From: Candidatus Omnitrophota bacterium
GTDB lineage: Bacteria; Omnitrophota; Gorgyraeia; Tantalellales; Tantalellaceae
Direction: 5' to 3'
DNA length: 39,878 nt
Assembly (NCBI GenBank): GCA_030631915.1
Contig: DAOVKF010000001.1
Span: forward strand, 1 to 39,878
Under the pieces are notes generated by a model that was not told the origin of the DNA, made no database searches, and worked only from the letters and a program-made list of their open reading frames with translations. Positions within the stretch are counted from its first letter, which is position 1. Every line of letters begins with the position of its first letter. Shown here piece by piece: positions 3 to 23,410 of the stretch. The position numbers and the translations under genes are program-made.

Positions 3-548
3 CTTTCCGAGACGGCCCAAAAGTATATTGCCGGGATATTGAAACATGCGCCGGAGATAACGTTCGTGTGCAACCAGTGGGTGAACTCATACAAGCGTCT
101 GGTGCCGGGGTATGAAGCGCCTGTTTATATATGCTGGGCGCAGCGCAACAGGAGTTCCCTGGTAAGGGTGCCGATGTATAAGCCGGGCAAGGAAAAGGCT
201 ACAAGGATTGAATTCCGCTCGCCCGACCCGGCCTGCAACCCGTACCTTGCTTTCGCGTGCATGCTCGCCGCTGGTTTTAAGGGGATGGAAGAGAAAAGTT
301 CTCTTGCTGAACCGATGGAAAGGGACGTTTATCATCTTGCGCCGGAAGAATTGAGCGAACTGGGCGTGGGATGCCTTCCCGGAAGCCTGATCGAGGCGAT
401 CGAGATCGCGGAAGGGAGCCGGTTGTTAAAAGACACCCTGGGCGACCATATATTCAACAACCTTCTCAAGAGCAAGAAGATAGAGTGGGATGAGTATCGC
501 CAAAGGGTGCATGGATACGAAATAGCGACGTATTTACCCGTACTATGA
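3..548 (+). CDS. glnA: glutamine synthetase type I, C-terminal part (5' end lies outside the window)
   Basis: The frame is open from position 3 (LSETAQKYIAGILKHAPEITFV...). It carries GS-I motifs: NRSSLVRVP, KATRIEFRSPDPACNPYLAF. Stop is TGA at 546-548. Confidence 0.9.
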   Translation, partial: LSETAQKYIAGILKHAPEITFVCNQWVNSYKRLVPGYEAPVYICWAQRNRSSLVRVPMYKPGKEKATRIEFRSPDPACNPYLAFACMLAAGFKGMEEKSSLAEPMERDVYHLAPEELSELGVGCLPGSLIEAIEIAEGSRLLKDTLGDHIFNNLLKSKKIEWDEYRQRVHGYEIATYLPVL

Positions 549-1264
549 GTGCTATGAGCAGTAAGAGATCCGGAAAAGATTATCTGGAAACGTTGAACAG
601 GATAAGCAGGGCCATAACCTCTGATCTTTACCTGGAGGATATCCTGAAGCTCATCGTGAATTTGACCGCCAATGTCATGAACGCCAAGATATGTTCTCTG
701 TGGCTACTGGACACAGAGACCGGTGAACTCAGGATAAGGGCGACGCAGGCGATGAGCAGGGAATATCTGAAGGAGAGAACGTTAAAAGTGGGGGAAGGCA
801 TCGTCGGAATGGCCGCGCAGGAGAAGAAGCCGGTGGTTATTCCCGACGTCCTGAAAGACAAACGGTATAAAGAAAAGACCCTTGCGGAAAAAGAGAACCT
901 GGTCTCAATGCTCAGCGTCCCGATGATCGAGAAAGACAGGGTCATGGGAGTTATAAACACATATACGGTCAATGAGCATAAGTTCACGAAGAGCGAGATC
1001 GAACTTTTAAGCATTGTGGCGGACCAGGCCGCAGTGGCCATTAAGAACACGGAACTGCTTGTGCAGACAAAAGTGATACAGGAAGAACTCGAGACCAGGA
1101 AAAAGGTGGAAAAGGCGAAAGGCATGCTGATGAAAGAACAGGATCTGTCGGAAGAGGAAGCGTATAAACTGATAAGAAAAGCCAGCATGGACAAGCGTAT
1201 CTCAATGAAAGAGATCGCCGAGGCCATAATACTTTCTTCCGAGATCAGCGGCAAAAAAGGATAA
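545..1264 (+). CDS. GAF-domain + ANTAR-domain RNA-binding (antiterminator-type) regulator
   Basis: ATGA start/stop overlap with glnA. The N-terminal part looks like a GAF domain (ICSLWLLD...GEGIVGMAA...VPMI..DRVMGVIN). The C-terminal part looks like ANTAR (KVEKAKGMLMKEQDLSEEEAYKLIRKASMDKRISMKEIAEAII). Confidence 0.85.
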   Translation: MSAMSSKRSGKDYLETLNRISRAITSDLYLEDILKLIVNLTANVMNAKICSLWLLDTETGELRIRATQAMSREYLKERTLKVGEGIVGMAAQEKKPVVIPDVLKDKRYKEKTLAEKENLVSMLSVPMIEKDRVMGVINTYTVNEHKFTKSEIELLSIVADQAAVAIKNTELLVQTKVIQEELETRKKVEKAKGMLMKEQDLSEEEAYKLIRKASMDKRISMKEIAEAIILSSEISGKKG

Positions 1265-1371
1265 ACAGAATATACCCGGGACAGAGGCTGTTACAAAGGA
1301 CGATGACGCCCGAGCCGTAAAACGGGTTCTTATTCAGCGCCCGGTGAAGCGAGCGCGACATTAAGGCACAG

Positions 1372-1415
1372 ACGCCCTTTTTAAGCATTGAAAGCTTGAA
1401 AAGGGCGTTTTTTTT
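1372..1415 (+). terminator. strong intrinsic terminator between the GAF-ANTAR gene and the sigma gene
   Basis: A 15-bp stem (ACGCCCTTTTTAAGC / GCTTGAAAAGGGCGT) with a 7-nt loop, followed by T8. Its 5' arm is overlapped by a small hairpin AAGGC-ACAGAC-GCC(c)TT at 1363-1379. Confidence 0.8.
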
Positions 1416-4799: not shown

Positions 4800-4888
4800 G
4801 AATAAGATAAAAGCCGGGGAGAGGAAAGGTGTCCTCTTGTCCAGAGAGCGGAGAGAGGACGCCTTTGTCATTCATGGGAGGAATGAAG

Positions 4889-6134: not shown

Positions 6135-6163
6135 TTGACAAATCGGGCAGGAAGTGATAAACT
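6135..6163 (+). promoter_or_regulatory. sigma-70-type promoter candidate for the gltB leader
   Basis: TTGACA (6135-6140), 17-nt spacer, TAAACT (6158-6163). Confidence 0.5.
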
Positions 6164-6184
6164 TAATAGTGTTAGGCAATGAGG

Positions 6185-6218
6185 CCCCTGGATACTGTGC
6201 AGTTCCAGGGGTTTTTTT
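6185..6218 (+). terminator. intrinsic terminator T1 in the GNAT-gltB spacer
   Basis: CCCCTGGA...TCCAGGGG stem followed by T7. The hairpin GGC-AATGAG-GCC (6175-6186) overlaps its 5' arm. Confidence 0.75.
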
Positions 6219-6247
6219 ATGCTTCGCCTCCCAAGGGGGATGAAGCA

Positions 6248-6291
6248 GCTCCAGGGACGGCGCAGGACCGGTAAAGGCAAAGAAGCCCTTT
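6248..6291 (+). promoter_or_regulatory. candidate ANTAR-type dual hexaloop hairpin (P1 6248-6263, P2 6273-6291)
   Basis: P1 is GCTCC-AGGGAC-GGCGC with one internal mismatch. P2 is AAAGGC-AAAGAA-GCC(c)TTT. Both loops have A at position 1 and G at position 4. The P2 3' arm is part of the terminator T2 5' arm. Confidence 0.4.
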
Positions 6292-6330
6292 TGAAGCTAA
6301 GAACAAGCTTTGAAGGGCTTTTTTTGTTTT
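6283..6330 (+). terminator. intrinsic terminator T2 about 50 nt upstream of gltB
   Basis: AAGCCCTTTTGAAGCT / AGCTTTGAAGGGCTT stem with a 7-nt loop, followed by TTTTTTTGTTTTT. The sequence is related to the terminator at 1372-1415. Confidence 0.75.
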
Positions 6331-10921: not shown

Positions 10922-12359
10922 TCCTCAGGGTTTTCAGAAAGTCGGGAGGCAAACGTCGGAAGGCAGACCGGTTCGCGAGCGCCTCAGGGATTACAGAGAG
11001 GTCCCGGTCATGCGTAAAGACGAACAGTCAAAGGAGCAGGCATCGCGCTGTATGGACTGCGGCACGCCTTTCTGCCACTGGGGATGTCCTCTCGGGAATT
11101 ATATCCCCGAATGGAACGATTTCATGTTTGACGGTCACTGGGAAAAGGCTTTTGAATTATTACAGGCAACTAACGATTTTCCGGAGTTTACGGGTAGGGT
11201 ATGTCCGGCAACCTGCGAATACGCGTGCGTGCTGGGCATAAATGACGATCCTGTGACCATACGCGAGAACGAACTCGCCGTAATAGAATACGCGTTCAGG
11301 AACGGGATGATAAAACCCCGGCCGCCCGTAACACGGACCGGGAAAAATGTCGCTGTTATAGGTTCAGGTCCGGCCGGGCTTGCCTGCGCAGCGCAGCTTA
11401 ACAGAGCGGGCCACAACGTTGTCGTATATGAAAAGGACGATAAGATCGGCGGCATTCTCCGTTACGGCATACCGGATTTCAAGCTTGAGAAAGGGGTCAT
11501 TGACAGACGTCTCTCCCTGATGAGGGAAGAAGGGATAAAGTTCGAGGCATCCGTCAACGTGGGCATGGATTACGACGCGCGGACATTACTGAAGGAATAC
11601 GACGCGGTGTGCCTCGCCGGAGGTTCCCGCGTACCGCGCGATCTCACAGTCGAAGGTCGCGGTCTGGAAGGCATATATTTCGCCATGGATTATCTGACGC
11701 AGTCGAACAGAAGAATATCCGGCGGGAGAATACCCGCAGACCGGCTTATAGACGCCGGGGGCAGGAAAGTCGTCGTGATCGGGGGAGGAGATACAGGTTC
11801 TGACTGCGTTGGGACCGCCGGCAGGCAGGGCGCTTTGAGCGTGACGCAGATCGAACTTTTGCCGAAGCCCCCGGAAAGCCGCGCCGAAGATCAACCCTGG
11901 CCGGTATACCCGGTGCTTCTGAAAACCTCGACCAGTCATGAGGAAGGAGGAGACAGGATATGGTCGGTCAGGACAAAGAGATTCGCCGGCGAAAAAGGCC
12001 GTGTTAACAAACTCGGATGTGTACGCGTGGAATTTGTCAGGACAGATGAAAAAGCTCCTCCCGTGATGAAAGATATCCCTGGCAGCGGGTTTGAGATAGA
12101 AGCGGACCTTGTTGTTCTCGCTCTGGGTTTTATCCGTCCCGAACATGGCGGCCTACTCACGGAGCTGGGCGTCGAATTGGATGAACGCGGGAATGTCAGG
12201 ACCGGCGAAGGGCTCATGACCTCTGTCAGCAAAGTCTTTTCCGCCGGAGACATGAGGCGAGGCCAGTCGCTTGTCGTATGGGCGATCTCAGAGGGCCGCA
12301 GGGCCGCGCATTCCATTGACGTTTTTCTGACGGGACAAAGCAACCTTCCTTATATGTAG
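10914..12359 (+). CDS. gltD: glutamate synthase small subunit (NAD(P)H-dependent)
   Basis: 8-nt overlap with gltB. Cys clusters CMDCGTPFCH and CPATCEYAC. Dinucleotide folds VAVIGSGPAGLA and VVVIGGGDTGSD. Confidence 0.95.
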   Translation: MGDPQGFQKVGRQTSEGRPVRERLRDYREVPVMRKDEQSKEQASRCMDCGTPFCHWGCPLGNYIPEWNDFMFDGHWEKAFELLQATNDFPEFTGRVCPATCEYACVLGINDDPVTIRENELAVIEYAFRNGMIKPRPPVTRTGKNVAVIGSGPAGLACAAQLNRAGHNVVVYEKDDKIGGILRYGIPDFKLEKGVIDRRLSLMREEGIKFEASVNVGMDYDARTLLKEYDAVCLAGGSRVPRDLTVEGRGLEGIYFAMDYLTQSNRRISGGRIPADRLIDAGGRKVVVIGGGDTGSDCVGTAGRQGALSVTQIELLPKPPESRAEDQPWPVYPVLLKTSTSHEEGGDRIWSVRTKRFAGEKGRVNKLGCVRVEFVRTDEKAPPVMKDIPGSGFEIEADLVVLALGFIRPEHGGLLTELGVELDERGNVRTGEGLMTSVSKVFSAGDMRRGQSLVVWAISEGRRAAHSIDVFLTGQSNLPYM

Positions 12360-12375
12360 TCCAATCCTTTTTTTC

Positions 12376-12404
12376 TTGACTAATCGTTCGAACTTCGAGA
12401 TAAT
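12376..12404 (+). promoter_or_regulatory. sigma-70-type promoter candidate for the nuoE-like operon leader
   Basis: TTGACT (12376-12381), 17-nt spacer, GATAAT (12399-12404). Confidence 0.55.
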
Positions 12405-12433
12405 TACCGGGCTGACACGCTGTTTGCGTCAGC

Positions 12434-12482
12434 AGGGAACAAAGACGTTCTTTCCTGCGGAGGGAGGAGTGTCTTTTTTTTT
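12434..12482 (+). terminator. leader attenuator: hexaloop hairpin (12434-12453) overlapping an intrinsic terminator (12441-12482)
   Basis: Terminator: 13-bp GACGTTCTTTCCT / AGGGAGGAGTGTC stem (with G-U pairs), GCGG loop, T9. Competing hairpin: AGGGAAC-AAAGAC-GTTCTTT, 7 bp with a hexaloop (A1, G4). Confidence 0.65.
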
Positions 12483-12548
12483 GATCAAAAACTCATGACC
12501 GTCCTTTTAGGCGGTCTCAGAGAATGAGAACCAGGAGCAAAAAAAAAG

Positions 12549-13040
12549 ATGACGACCGCAGACGCGAAAAGAGTCGATACTATACTAAAAGGCAGAGAAG
12601 GCGCTTCCGGCGAATTGATCGAGGCGCTGCAGGATATCCAGGATGCCTTTAAGTACCTTCCGGAAGAGGCGCTGAGAAGTGTGTCGGAAAAGATGGCAGT
12701 GCCCCTTATCGAAGTATTCAGAGTTGCGAATTATTATAAGGCGTTTACGCTTCAGCCGCGCGGCAGGCATCTCCTTACGGTCTGCATGGGGACCGCGTGC
12801 CATGTGAGAGGAGCGCCCAGGTTCCTGGATGAGGTCCTCGGCCAGCTTGACATCAAACCCGGAGAGACTACCGAAGACGGCGACTTTACCGTGGAAACGG
12901 TAAACTGCCTCGGCGCGTGCGCTTTAGGCCCGGTCGTGGTGCTTGACGGAAAATATCATGACCATATGACCGCCGGGAAATTACGCGCTTTGATCCAGGG
13001 GACCCTCTCTAAGAAGGCAAAAAAAACAGGTGATAGATGA
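12549..13040 (+). CDS. NuoE/HoxE-like thioredoxin-fold [2Fe-2S] ferredoxin subunit
   Basis: CMGTACHVRGA ... VNCLGACALGPVVVLDG motif set. Confidence 0.85.
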   Translation: MTTADAKRVDTILKGREGASGELIEALQDIQDAFKYLPEEALRSVSEKMAVPLIEVFRVANYYKAFTLQPRGRHLLTVCMGTACHVRGAPRFLDEVLGQLDIKPGETTEDGDFTVETVNCLGACALGPVVVLDGKYHDHMTAGKLRALIQGTLSKKAKKTGDR

Positions 13041-14890
13041 GAACCATAGCTTGCATGGAAGATCTGGAAAAACTGGCCGAGCAAAAGAGAAAAGAAAACC
13101 GTGGATACAGCAGGACAGTTACTCTCTGCGCAGGCACCGGATGTTGCGCGTCAGGATGCCTTTCAGTGATAAAAGCGTTACGTGAAGAGCTGGAGCGTTT
13201 GAAATTAAAGGAAAAGATCAAGATCAGGGCTACCGGTTGCCACGGTTTCTGCGAACAGGGGCCGCTCATGGTCATAGAACCCGGGAATATTTTTTATTGC
13301 CGGATCAAGCCCGAGGATATCCCTGAGATCGTTGCCGAGACATTGCAGAAGGACCGGCTGATAGAAAGGTTAATGTATACCGACCCTTCTTCGGGCAGAA
13401 AGATCGCCTGTGAGGCGGAGATCCCTTTTTATAAAGCGCAGGACCGGACAGTACTGGGCCAGAATAAACTGGTTGACCCGTGCGCGGTCGGGGATTATAT
13501 AGCGAATGGCGGCTATTCCGCGTTAGTCAAGGTCCTGACATCCATGAAGCCCGAAGAGGTGATAGACGAGATCAAACGGTCCGGGCTCAGGGGCAGGGGC
13601 GGCGGCGGGTTCCCTGCCGGTAGACAATGGGAGTATTGCAGACAGGCCGAGGGTGAACCCAAGTATGTTATCTGCAACGCGGACGAAGGCGACCCCGGCG
13701 CTTACATGGACAGGAGTGTTCTCGAGGGCAACCCTCATGTCGTTATCGAGGGCATGCTTATCGGAGCGTTCGCCATCGGCGCGAAGCATGGTTTTATATA
13801 CGTCAGGAATGAATATCCGCTCGCGGTGGAACATTCAAAGATCGCGGTCGAGCAGGCCGGGAAGCTGGGGCTCCTGGGAACGAATATCCTCGGGACGGAT
13901 TTTTCGTTTGACATAAAAATAGCCAGAGGCGGCGGCGCGTTCGTGTGCGGCGAGTCGACCGCGTTAATGGCCTCTCTGGAAGGCATGGTCGGTGAGCCCA
14001 GGCCAAAGGATATCCATACGACGGACAAAGGGTTTAAGGACCTGCCGACAAATCTGAATAATGTTGAGACCTGGGCCAATGTGCCTTTTATCATCAATAA
14101 GGGGTCTTCCTGGTTCGCCTCAAAAGGCACCTCCGGGAGCAAGGGAACAAAGATCTTTGCCCTGACCGGACAGATAAGAAATACCGGGTTGGTCGAGATC
14201 TCCATGGGGACCACTCTGCGGGAGATCATATATGATATAGGCGGCGGATCCGCTACGGGGAAAAAGATAAAGGCGGTCCAGACAGGCGGGCCGTCCGGGG
14301 GCTGTCTTCCCGAGGAACTCTTTGATCTGCCCGTGGATTTCGAGGCGTTGGCCGAAGCGGGTTCAATGGTGGGTTCAGGCGGGATGGTGGTAATGGACGA
14401 GGATACCTGCATGGTCGATGTCGCCAGGTATTTTCTGGAATTCCTTCTGGACGAATCATGCGGTAAATGTGTTCCGTGCAGGATCGGCCTGAGCCGCATG
14501 CTGGAAATAATAAAAGATATCACGGAAGGCAGGGGAACGGAAGAAAAACTGGAACTCCTGAAAGACACGGCTGAAACCGTATCCGTGGCTTCATTATGCG
14601 CTTTGGGCAAAACAGCCCCTAACCCGGTGCTATCCACGATCAAATATTTCCGGTCCGAATACGAAGCACATATAAAGAAAAAACAATGTCCCGCCGGGGT
14701 GTGCAGGGAATTGATACATTATTCCATTGACCGGGACAAATGCACGGGCTGCGGCGTTTGTTTAACGGCCTGTCCCCATGAGGCCATTACGGGCGAAAAA
14801 GGAAAGGTTCACAGGATCGAGGACGATAAATGCCGGAAATGCGGTATTTGCGGGGAAGCGTGTAAATTCGGCGCGATCAAGCTGTCATAG
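13037..14890 (+). CDS. NuoF/HydB-type NAD(H)- and FMN-binding flavoprotein with N-terminal [2Fe-2S] and C-terminal 2x[4Fe-4S] domains
   Basis: ATGA overlap with the previous gene. GLRGRGGGGFPAG, ICNADEGDPGAYMDR, ESCGKCVPCR, and C-terminal CTGCGVCLTACP / CRKCGICGEAC. Confidence 0.9.
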   Translation: MRTIACMEDLEKLAEQKRKENRGYSRTVTLCAGTGCCASGCLSVIKALREELERLKLKEKIKIRATGCHGFCEQGPLMVIEPGNIFYCRIKPEDIPEIVAETLQKDRLIERLMYTDPSSGRKIACEAEIPFYKAQDRTVLGQNKLVDPCAVGDYIANGGYSALVKVLTSMKPEEVIDEIKRSGLRGRGGGGFPAGRQWEYCRQAEGEPKYVICNADEGDPGAYMDRSVLEGNPHVVIEGMLIGAFAIGAKHGFIYVRNEYPLAVEHSKIAVEQAGKLGLLGTNILGTDFSFDIKIARGGGAFVCGESTALMASLEGMVGEPRPKDIHTTDKGFKDLPTNLNNVETWANVPFIINKGSSWFASKGTSGSKGTKIFALTGQIRNTGLVEISMGTTLREIIYDIGGGSATGKKIKAVQTGGPSGGCLPEELFDLPVDFEALAEAGSMVGSGGMVVMDEDTCMVDVARYFLEFLLDESCGKCVPCRIGLSRMLEIIKDITEGRGTEEKLELLKDTAETVSVASLCALGKTAPNPVLSTIKYFRSEYEAHIKKKQCPAGVCRELIHYSIDRDKCTGCGVCLTACPHEAITGEKGKVHRIEDDKCRKCGICGEACKFGAIKLS

Positions 14891-14898
14891 GAGAATAA

Positions 14899-15612
14899 AT
14901 GAGTGAATATGTAACCCTTACAATTAACGGCGCTAAAGTAAGGGCGCCTCGAGGTACATCAGTATTGGACGCCGCGCTGGATTACGGGATATGCATACCG
15001 CACCTCTGTCACATGCAGGGGGTGATCCCCACGGGTGTCTGCCGTCTGTGTATCGTGGAGGTTATTGAAAAAGGCAGGTCAAAAGTTACTACCTCCTGCA
15101 CTCTTGAAGCGGAGGAAGGGATGGTAATTTTAGCTCATACGGACAAGATCCTTAAGGCGAGGAAGAATATCGCCGAGATGCTGGTAGCCGAAGCGCCTAA
15201 TTCACGCGCCATCCAGGACATTGCTCTCAAGTGCGGCGTTAAAGACGTCCGGTATCCTTTCCGCAATAAGGATTGCGTTTTATGCGGACGATGCGTCAGA
15301 GCCTGCACCGAGATATGGCGGTCCAGGTCCCTGGGTTTTGTGGGGCGCGGAGAACAGCGGCATGTCGCCCTTCCGTTCGACGAACGTCCGGAATTCTGTA
15401 AAAGATGCAATGCCTGTATCGATCTCTGTCCCATGACCATTACTCCGTGTGACGGGCCCATGAAAAAAGGCGAGGAATATTTTTGCGGGAAATGCGAGTC
15501 TCAACTGTCAATGTCGGAAGATTTTGTGGATAGTTGCGTGTGGTGCAGACTGGGAGAAGGGTTTGACGTGACAGGCAGACACGCCGGAAGAAAACAGGAG
15601 GATAAAAGATGA
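14899..15612 (+). CDS. NuoG/HydA N-terminal-like [2Fe-2S] + [4Fe-4S] ferredoxin (no catalytic domain)
   Basis: ITLTINGAKVRAPRGTSVLDAALDYGICIPHLCH, CRLCIVEV, CVLCGRCVRAC, CKRCNACIDLCP. Confidence 0.8.
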   Translation: MSEYVTLTINGAKVRAPRGTSVLDAALDYGICIPHLCHMQGVIPTGVCRLCIVEVIEKGRSKVTTSCTLEAEEGMVILAHTDKILKARKNIAEMLVAEAPNSRAIQDIALKCGVKDVRYPFRNKDCVLCGRCVRACTEIWRSRSLGFVGRGEQRHVALPFDERPEFCKRCNACIDLCPMTITPCDGPMKKGEEYFCGKCESQLSMSEDFVDSCVWCRLGEGFDVTGRHAGRKQEDKR

Positions 15613-17195
15613 ATTTGCAGCAGCCGAATGCTAACGACGTAACACAGACAGCGAACAGGTCCCGGAGCGTTGTTCCCGGGTCGGGATTATGCACGCGGTG
15701 TATTGACGGGTGCCGCGGGAATTGCGAAGTGTTTAAAGCGACCTTCAGGGGCCGCGAAGTGATCTATCCCGGCCCGTTCGGCGAGATCTCGGCCGGCGGA
15801 GACAAAGAATACCCGGTGGATTATTCACATCTTAACATACAGGGATACGCCATGGGCGCCAAAGGGCTTCCCGAAGGCGTGGAGGCCGGCCCGGACACCG
15901 CAACCTTTCCCGCTGTGAACACCGAAACCGGATACGGATGGGATAAAAAGGTAAAGATGAGGGTCCCGGCTTTTACAGGGGCGCTCGGCTCCACGGAAAT
16001 AGCCAGAAAGAACTGGGAGCATTTCGCGATCGGAGCGGCTATTTCCGGCGTTACTCTGGTCTGCGGAGAGAATGTTTGCGGCATTGACCCGGAATTGGAA
16101 CTGGACCCAAAGGGAAAGATCAAAAAAGCCCCTGACATGGACAGAAGGATAGAAACCTATAAGAAATTTCATGAGGGCTACGGAGAGATACTGGTCCAGA
16201 TGAACGTCGAAGACACCCGTTTGGGCGTCGCGGAATATGTAAGAAAGAAACACGACCTGGAGACCATTGAGCTTAAATGGGGACAGGGGGCCAAGTGTAT
16301 CGGAGGAGAGATCAAGGTCAAGAGCCTGGAAAGGGCGCTGGAACTTAAAAAAAGGGGATATATCGTTACTCCTGATCCGACGCTCAAGGCGGTCCAGAAC
16401 GCCTATAAAGCCGGAGCTATCAGGGAATTTGAACGCCATTCCCGCCTTGGATTCGTGACGGAAGAGGCTTTCTTCCAGGAGATCAAGCGTCTCAGGGATC
16501 TGGGGTTTAAGAGGATAACCCTGAAGACCGGCGCGTATCCGATGAGGGAACTTGCCATGGCCGTTAAATATTCGTCAATGGCCGGGATAGATCTTCTCAC
16601 GATAGACGGGGCTCCGGGCGGAACCGGGATGAGTCCGTGGAGGATGATGGAAGAGTGGGGGGTCCCGACGTTCTATCTCCAGTCCATGACTTATGAGATA
16701 TGTGAAAAACTAACGAAGAAAGGGATGCGGGTCCCGGACATCGCGATCGCGGGAGGGTTCTCCACCGAAGACCACATCTTCAAGGTGCTGGCCATGGGAG
16801 CGCCTTACGTGAAGGCGGTCTGCATGGGAAGGGCATATATGATCCCGGGCATGGTCGGCAAGAATATCGGATACTGGATCGATGGCAAGGACCTGCCTTC
16901 AACGGTTTCCCGATACGGCAAGACCCCGGAAGAGATATTTGTATGCTATGACGAGCTTGTCGAGAAATACGGAAACAGGATGAAAGAGATCCCCCTCGGC
17001 GCGATAGGGATCTACAGCTTTGCGCAGAAACTGAAAGTCGGGCTTCAGCAGCTCATGGCCGGGAGCAGGAATTTCAGGCTGGATACCATATCAAGGAAAG
17101 ACCTCATGTCCTTAACGGAAGAAGCCGCGAAAGTATCAGGCATTCCTTACGTGATGGACGCTTACAGGGAAGAGGCGGAAGCGGTACTTGGATAA
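15609..17195 (+). CDS. stand-alone glutamate synthase FMN-domain (GltS synthase-domain) protein with N-terminal Cys cluster
   Basis: ATGA overlap with the ferredoxin gene. CTRCIDGCRGNCEVF cluster. LTIDGAPGGTGMSP parallels ISGGDGGTGASP of gltB in this window. No Ntn glutaminase domain and no GXGXG domain. Confidence 0.85.
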   Translation: MNLQQPNANDVTQTANRSRSVVPGSGLCTRCIDGCRGNCEVFKATFRGREVIYPGPFGEISAGGDKEYPVDYSHLNIQGYAMGAKGLPEGVEAGPDTATFPAVNTETGYGWDKKVKMRVPAFTGALGSTEIARKNWEHFAIGAAISGVTLVCGENVCGIDPELELDPKGKIKKAPDMDRRIETYKKFHEGYGEILVQMNVEDTRLGVAEYVRKKHDLETIELKWGQGAKCIGGEIKVKSLERALELKKRGYIVTPDPTLKAVQNAYKAGAIREFERHSRLGFVTEEAFFQEIKRLRDLGFKRITLKTGAYPMRELAMAVKYSSMAGIDLLTIDGAPGGTGMSPWRMMEEWGVPTFYLQSMTYEICEKLTKKGMRVPDIAIAGGFSTEDHIFKVLAMGAPYVKAVCMGRAYMIPGMVGKNIGYWIDGKDLPSTVSRYGKTPEEIFVCYDELVEKYGNRMKEIPLGAIGIYSFAQKLKVGLQQLMAGSRNFRLDTISRKDLMSLTEEAAKVSGIPYVMDAYREEAEAVLG

Positions 17196-23337: not shown

Positions 23338-23410
23338 CTGCCCGGGTATCCTCGAGCTGAGGGAACGGTCGTTTGCCATGCTCCTACCAGGGCCTCTTTG
23401 CCCGGAGCAG
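23338..23410 (-). repeat. conserved structured noncoding element, copy A (in the carB1 5' leader)
   Basis: The minus strand reads CTGCTCCGGGCAAAGAGGCCCTGGTAGGAGCATGGCAAACGACCGT...GGATACCCGGGCAG. It is closed by a CTGC(t)CCGGG / CCCGGGCAG stem and is homologous to 39669-39730. Confidence 0.6.

Follow-up and report, generated by a model that had tools for sequence, protein, structure and literature searches.

The question raised by this locus is whether the short region at 12376-12482, which lies between gltD and a nuoE-nuoF-ferredoxin-GltS(FMN) operon in a metagenome-assembled genome of Candidatus Omnitrophota (1.55 Mb, 217 contigs, 89% complete), is a regulatory leader of the operon downstream or simply the end of the operon upstream. 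Our analysis of the window, by which we mean the whole stretch of 39,878 nucleotides, suggests that the region is very probably an ANTAR-type transcription-attenuation leader of the downstream operon, opened by a GAF-ANTAR protein. According to Pfam, the first genes of the window are glnA (3' half) and the GAF-ANTAR gene; an attenuator (1368), a sigma-like ORF and another ORF come next, and then amtB, two P-II genes, a GNAT gene, a promoter with attenuators (6178 and 6279), gltB, gltD and the leader. The four genes that follow on the forward strand (12549-17195) encode a nuoE-like protein (12549-13040), a nuoF-like protein (13037-14890), a 2Fe-2S/4Fe-4S ferredoxin-like protein (14899-15612), and a GltS FMN-domain protein of 528 aa (15609-17195); they abut or overlap, without an internal leader. 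The GAF-ANTAR gene (545-1264, forward strand; Pfam GAF 7e-24, ANTAR 1.6e-20) is the one ANTAR gene detected in this genome, in which, at 89% completeness, further copies are possible.

The leader opens with a sigma-70-type promoter on the forward strand, formed by TTGACT (12376-12381), a 17-nt spacer, and GATAAT (12399-12404). It matches the promoter consensus at 10 of 12 positions and is among the top four promoter-like sites of the first 19 kb. From its position, transcription is predicted to start at about 12411, where a hairpin in the P1 position begins (12411-12433, forward strand, -9.2 kcal/mol). RNAfold gives this hairpin the pentaloop UGUUU, and an alternative drawing is CAC[GCUGUUU]GCG (loop in brackets) with an A-C mismatch. 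It is followed on the same strand by the predicted P2 antiterminator hairpin (12434-12453, -4.4 kcal/mol), whose core, GAAC[AAAGAC]GUUC at 12437-12450, exposes the hexaloop AAAGAC (12441-12446), whose first base is A and whose fourth is G (hereafter A1/G4). The original prediction had described the promoter and the first hairpin just as they are found here, and it had the place and the loop of the second hairpin right; the seven pairs that it gave to P2, two of them G-U, hold as drawn, and RNAfold forms six. In relatives, the inner GAAC/GUUC is the sole conserved part of this stem.

P2 runs directly into a predicted intrinsic terminator (12441-12482, forward strand, -17.9 kcal/mol), in which 12441-12456 pairs with 12461-12476 around a GCGG tetraloop and a T9 run follows at 12474-12482, so that the region has the stable stem-loop and subsequent U tract by which intrinsic terminators are recognized. 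This structure had been anticipated at the same place and with the same T9, but with a stem of 13 bp, where counting the G-U pairs and the AAA/UUU base gives 16 bp. The 5' arm of the terminator consists of the P2 loop and the P2 3' arm, and since 12441-12453 belongs to both folds, P2 and the terminator are mutually exclusive, as had been proposed. The terminator is favored over P2 by about 13 kcal/mol, and for this reason termination would be the default, whereas read-through would need a factor that holds P2. The fold of the entire leader is more stable than that of shuffled sequences (z -2.7). An extra hairpin on the forward strand (12492-12528, -13.6 kcal/mol) separates the terminator from the nuoE ribosome-binding site (AGGAG, 12533-12537); the leader alignment shows no counterpart of it in related nuoE leaders.

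Similar elements are found elsewhere in the same genome. Attention had been drawn to the loops ACAGAC (1368), AATGAG (6178), and AAAGAA (6279), and each of them indeed lies inside GGC[...]GCC fused to a terminator. The first belongs to an attenuator at 1360-1415 (forward strand), GGC[ACAGAC]GCC plus terminator, which precedes the sigma-like, amtB, and P-II genes and scores 18.4 bits with R1, a covariance model described below. The other two, GGC[AATGAG]GCC and GGC[AAAGAA]GCC, stand in tandem behind a promoter in the gltB leader (6135-6327, forward strand), the second scoring 18.7 bits with R1. The AxxGAx pattern suggested as common to these loops is shared as far as A1 and G4 are concerned; for the class of operon studied here, we refine it to AAAGRC with an AC/GU closing stem. 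Moreover, a glnA leader on another contig (C211:10870-11739) has a TTGACA-17-TAGAAT promoter, a P1 hairpin GCAC[AUGGUA]GUGC, and a tandem pair of attenuators, of which GGAU[AAAGAC]GUCC plus terminator is the second. Since glnA is split, with its 5' half at the end of this contig and its 3' half at the opening of the window, the two are probably neighbors separated by a gap of tens of codons. A search for the motif next to terminators across the genome, as the original prediction had advised, gave six matches in its strict version, in which a C[A..G..]G hexaloop had to adjoin a strong terminator with at least T6; four of these, each on the coding strand, lie within this stretch of 11 kb. Looser regex and stem scans for A..G.. 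hexaloops near T-runs returned 84-144 matches in the genome, mostly noise; a control of the strict scan with shifted A/G loops is not independent, as true sites fit several patterns, and was dropped as a statistic.

Some further structures were noted in passing. Between the two P-II genes, at 4810-4880, there is a 13-bp perfect stem that reads GAGAGGA[AAGGUG]UCCUCUU on the forward strand, where the U tract is poor, and GAC[AAAGGC]GUC on the reverse strand; R1 matches both strands (14.5 and 18.7 bits), and the stem may serve to attenuate transcription between the cistrons or may mark a site of processing. At 2059-2109, GAC[GCAGGC]GUC, whose loop begins with G and not with A, runs into a terminator-like stem and T5 upstream of a 270-aa ORF at 2188 (R1 14.7 bits). 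The orthologous ORF of two related loci (L029 and L057) has an R1 match in the same upstream position, and the unit is probably a diverged attenuator within the amtB operon. A repeat about 65 nt long (...CCAUGUUCCGUACAGGGAGGAUCCACACCGGGCAAAGGGGCCCUGGUAGGAA...), with a GGGC[AAAGGG]GCCC hexaloop inside it, is found dispersed, in the carB 5' leader (window about 23338-23410, reverse strand) and on contigs C36, C39, C84, C87, and C134, sometimes in tandem; in the relative G018 (locus L105) it lies directly 3' of an ANTAR-type attenuator.

The placement of the module in related genomes tells to which operon it belongs. We assembled the loci of GltS-FMN orthologues from 80 GTDB species genomes (74-90% identity, mostly Omnitrophota) and 9 relatives, with neighbor genes mapped by tblastn. 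The operon has three forms, namely nuoE-nuoF-fer-gltSfmn, GAF-ANTAR followed by gltSfmn (the commonest), and stand-alone gltSfmn, and all three have a TTGACA-type promoter and the module G(G/A)AC[AAAGRC]GUYC upstream of the first gene, where loop and 3' arm of the module double as the 5' arm of a terminator whose last bases are GAACGYCUUUUUU. This arrangement upstream of the gene that comes first in the GltS-FMN-carrying operon occurs in about 45 related loci, four of which (L022, L023, L025, and L072) have nuoE in this place, whereas the gene concerned is that of the GAF-ANTAR protein in about 19 and a lone GltS-FMN gene in about 23. In G026 (L011/L029) the module is not upstream of nuoE but separates the ferredoxin gene from the GltS-FMN gene. 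The expectation of an attenuator ahead of the NuoEF-GltS-FMN operon is thereby supported by dozens of Omnitrophota genomes. The genes on the upstream side vary: L025 has the gltD-leader-nuoE order of the window, L022 has an unrelated gene in this position, and L023 has the ANTAR gene. Because the module is present where the upstream genes differ, it belongs to the downstream operon and not to gltD. When five nuoE-type leaders are aligned, the -35, -10, P2, and terminator blocks are conserved at fixed spacing, and those of L022, L023, and L025 carry CTTGAC(A) and a (T/G)ATAAT-like -10 at equal distance from the hairpins. Tandem arrays of two or three attenuators behind a single P1 were also seen, L040, L055, and L068 being among the loci concerned. 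The GAF-ANTAR gene stands directly upstream of the GltS-FMN gene, with one or more attenuators ahead of it, in about 35 of the 80 loci (L021-L100), which points to an autoregulated two-gene operon in those loci.

Model R1 was built from 21 cleanly aligned units, all of them foreign, with this genome excluded. Its top match in the window is 12433-12479 (32 bits, E 2.5e-5), and the same site is its top match in the whole genome (E 9.6e-4), followed by the two tandem glnA-leader units on C211 and then by the gltB and amtB-side leaders (18-19 bits). The matched unit lies on the coding strand, 67 nt upstream of nuoE; it follows a promoter and precedes the first gene, which is the placement typical of the R1 family and the layout of L022, L023, and L025. 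Within the 743 kb of related loci there are 83 R1 matches at E <= 0.05, nearly all on the gene strand, and 68 of these lie at most 450 nt upstream of a nitrogen-cluster gene. The gene directly 3' of the motif is most commonly the ANTAR gene (26 of 83), and the other targets are gltSfmn (24), sigma-like genes (7), nuoE (3), amtB (3), orf270 (2), and glnA, P-II, and gltB (one each). The original prediction had assigned the operon to the regulon of gltB and amtB; that R1 also matches the glnA, gltB, and amtB-side leaders of a genome in which one ANTAR protein is encoded supports, at the level of sequence, a single putative regulon comprising the nuoE-GltS(FMN) operon, glnA, the amtB/P-II genes, and gltBD. 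The best R1 score overall, 46 bits, was obtained in L105 (G018:C2:100500-108500), where the match precedes a pair of PyrK-like and GltD-like (NfnAB/SudAB-type) genes.

In the 21 foreign units, the terminator helix is 93% paired and has 27 double-change cells, a covariation equalled by 0 of 500 shuffles, and slid registers are at most 71% paired. Over the 83 units it is 94.5% paired with 110 double-change cells, in an alignment that is fitted to R1. The P2 helix is 83.5% paired yet near-invariant, and this near-invariance is the reason why it shows little covariation.

How far can these observations be accommodated without an ANTAR-controlled leader? The original prediction had allowed that the terminator merely ends gltBD, in which case the promoter and the hexaloop would be coincidental and nuoE would be expressed from elsewhere or by leak-through. 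The terminator does lie only 82-123 nt past the gltD stop (12359), no convincing terminator was found between that stop and the leader terminator, and the sole other candidate after gltD, at 12329-12373, is a weak R1 match (16.6 bits) with a 4-bp stem; in addition, promoter-like hexamers are common here (22 observed vs 16.8 expected). One part of this proposal thus stands, in that the terminator probably stops gltBD transcripts too, with gltBD read-through under the same control. As an account of its sole role, however, it is very unlikely, given that the module precedes the operon in loci without upstream gltD (L022, L023, and many stand-alone gltSfmn genes), that the -35 and -10 are conserved at equal spacing, and that the site tops the genome for a model trained on leaders and not on operon ends. 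The attenuator could also be genuine and answer to another operator, such as some other protein that binds RNA, a small RNA, or a metabolite with a direct effect on the leader. Such an operator would explain why G018 (46 bits), G026, and G015 carry a strong motif with no ANTAR gene detected, and the leader of the window departs from the canonical dual-hairpin arrangement. These three genomes are, however, incomplete MAGs (75-94% completeness), in which the missing gene could reflect an assembly gap or another regulator. Further, an A1/G4 hexaloop with a C-G closing pair and a fused terminator is what defines an ANTAR target, and the gene most frequent downstream of the motif is the ANTAR gene itself, which is often immediately upstream of GltS-FMN. 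An RNA-bound metabolite has to contend with the small size of the leader's conserved structure, too small for a ligand pocket, and with the lack of any Rfam riboswitch match in the region: over the window tRNA alone passes the Rfam gathering threshold, and a permissive search of 12300-12600 gave best sub-threshold scores of 16-18 bits vs cut-offs of 40-105. We regard an operator other than the ANTAR protein as quite unlikely.

It is conceivable, too, that the hexaloop hairpin acts after transcription, on mRNA stability, processing, or translation. ANTAR RNAs that overlap ribosome-binding sites occur in actinobacteria (PMC8164766), and the hairpin at 12492-12528 lies just ahead of such a site; but that hairpin is not conserved, the hexaloop is about 90 nt from AGGAG at 12533-12537, and it overlaps a strong U-tract terminator with a covarying helix, all of which makes a post-transcriptional role exceedingly improbable, the least probable of these alternatives. 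As a separate matter, a leader-peptide (trp-type) attenuator was ruled out, as there is no AUG in 12405-12482; the sole GUG (12469) is within the terminator 3' arm, abuts a G-rich run, and opens a frame of 4 codons.

The ANTAR-type leader, then, is the reading that we prefer, and it has to come to terms with P1. In several registers tried, no A1/G4 hairpin with a loop of 6-7 nt was found from the promoter to P2, and the leader 12376-12482 is without the upstream P1 hexaloop that the dual-hairpin definition of Ramesh 2012 includes. In the EutV system, deletion or mutation of P1 strongly lowers induction (PMC3369931). Structural work, on the other hand, has identified the single hexaloop as the minimal ANTAR binding unit, and a minimal single-hexaloop target was proposed there, not demonstrated for co-transcriptional control (PMC8934654). 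Where P1 is present in this lineage, it mostly has the heptaloop CAC[AAnGUUn]GUG, of which the hairpin at 12411-12433 keeps G4-U5-U6 but not A1-A2. By strict criteria, a P1-like hairpin occurs within 55 nt upstream in 37 of 83 related units vs 9 of 83 in a downstream control, and 46 of the 83 are without P1 by the same criteria. The units at 1368, 6178, and 6279 are likewise without a P1 hexaloop, and in L018 and L012 the predicted start is too close for any P1. Metagenome contigs were scanned with the exact pattern GGRACAAAGACGTTCYTTCC for close leaders that would permit a covariation test of the 12411-12433 hairpin; the scan returned chance matches within coding regions alone and no near-identical leaders. 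We treat the leader element as a putatively functional ANTAR target despite this one departure from the dual-hairpin arrangement.

The presumed regulator is the GAF-ANTAR protein. Among 41 relatives, the motif (R1, E <= 0.01) is present in 27 of the 33 genomes that have an ANTAR gene and in 3 of the 8 in which none was detected (Fisher p = 0.022). The ANTAR domain of the protein aligns to EutV (6WSH/6WW6) at E 1e-12 and conserves the EEEAY tyrosine, the residue (Tyr164) against which G4 is stacked when EutV is bound to RNA (PMC8934654). For its GAF domain, the closest similarity is to the corresponding domains of PtsP (EI-Ntr) and to a Geobacter GAF protein. The GAF domain of PtsP responds to glutamine and 2-oxoglutarate, and by this analogy a nitrogen-status metabolite would be a reasonable candidate for the ligand of the GAF-ANTAR protein. 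A literature search for GAF-ANTAR proteins in Omnitrophota returned nothing specific. One relative, G016 (3.1 Mb, 660 contigs, 8% contamination), has eleven identically scoring ANTAR ORFs of 253 aa on eleven contigs and no R1 motif match; these copies could have arisen from faulty assembly, or the gene may be carried by a repeated element.

Taken together, we propose that RNA polymerase would initiate at the sigma-70-type promoter immediately past gltD and that, by default, the nascent RNA would adopt the terminator at 12441-12482, halting the polymerase ahead of nuoE. When activated, probably through a metabolite that reports nitrogen status to its GAF domain, the GAF-ANTAR protein would bind the A1/G4 hexaloop of the weak GAAC[AAAGAC]GUUC hairpin, and the bound P2 would sequester the terminator 5' arm, so that no terminator would form and read-through would follow.

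It is established that ANTAR proteins control nitrogen genes by antitermination, the principle having been known since 2010-2012. Documented cases include GnfR (PMC2995071) as well as EutV, NasR, and AmiR, to which predicted regulons that include glutamate synthase have been added, and ANTAR targets are A1/G4 hexaloops that overlap terminators, mostly before nitrogen genes, among them glutamate synthase (PMC3369931). A close parallel in leader architecture is found in the eut leaders of Enterococcus faecalis (PMC3369931; 6WW6, PMC8934654), which share with the present leader the A1/G4 hexaloop hairpin, the use of its 3' half as the 5' arm of an intrinsic terminator, and an ANTAR protein encoded nearby. 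EutV/EutW, however, acts through a phosphorylated response regulator on ethanolamine genes, and its leaders have a P1 hexaloop, whereas here a one-component GAF-ANTAR protein would act on nitrogen-assimilation genes, the canonical P1 is absent, and P1 in the lineage is mostly a heptaloop. In Geobacter sulfurreducens, the ANTAR protein of the GnfK/GnfR system relieves terminators in the glnK, amtB, and nif leaders, much as we propose here, and the GnfR site is given as GGC-AANGGC-GCC (PMC2995071). This proposed site, CAGGCAANGGCGCC, or GGC[AANGGC]GCC, has the form seen in the gltB and amtB leaders of the window, while the hairpin of the nuoE operon has an AC/GU stem in place of the GnfR-type GC/GC. 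GnfR is, moreover, a response regulator in a two-component cascade with RpoN promoters, in contrast to the sigma-70-like promoters and the GAF sensor of the present system. The predicted ANTAR nitrogen regulons of Desulfotomaculum and Pelobacter (Ramesh et al. 2012) resemble the present one in having many attenuators per genome, with glutamate synthase included; their glutamate synthase, P-II, and amtB leaders belong to other phyla, and Omnitrophota contributes the NuoEF-ferredoxin-GltS(FMN) module. In NasR/nasF and NasT/nirBD (PMC7496416, PMC10783516), a one-component or partner-controlled ANTAR protein acts on a leader hexaloop to prevent termination, as in our proposal. Their sensors differ, being NIT, or REC with NasS, with nitrate or nitrite as the signal, where the present protein has a GAF domain, and the relation between NasR and the GAF-ANTAR protein is confined to the ANTAR domain (E 2e-7). 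What is new is that the NuoEF-ferredoxin-GltS(FMN) operon is tied to the regulon and that GltS-FMN is the most frequent partner of the GAF-ANTAR gene.

The analysis places an uncharacterized four-gene redox operon in the putative nitrogen-status regulon of an uncultured phylum. It adds evidence that about 18 kb of adjoining nitrogen genes (glnA, amtB/P-II, gltBD, and the nuoE operon) form an island under the control of a single GAF-ANTAR protein, with at least seven attenuators. Membership in this regulon would support a role of the operon in ammonium or glutamate assimilation and suggests a condition under which it may be expressed. We advance, tentatively and as somewhat less than an even chance, the combined view that a lone A1/G4 hexaloop-terminator suffices in vivo and that GltS-FMN is a core nitrogen-status-controlled assimilation enzyme of Omnitrophota. 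If the lone hexaloop suffices, about half of the 83 units, and this leader with them, would be natural minimal single-hexaloop targets; the P1-less leaders could in any case serve for testing how far antitermination needs the dual-hairpin rule. If GltS-FMN is a core assimilation enzyme, its regulation would provide the first functional handle on an uncharacterized enzyme family.
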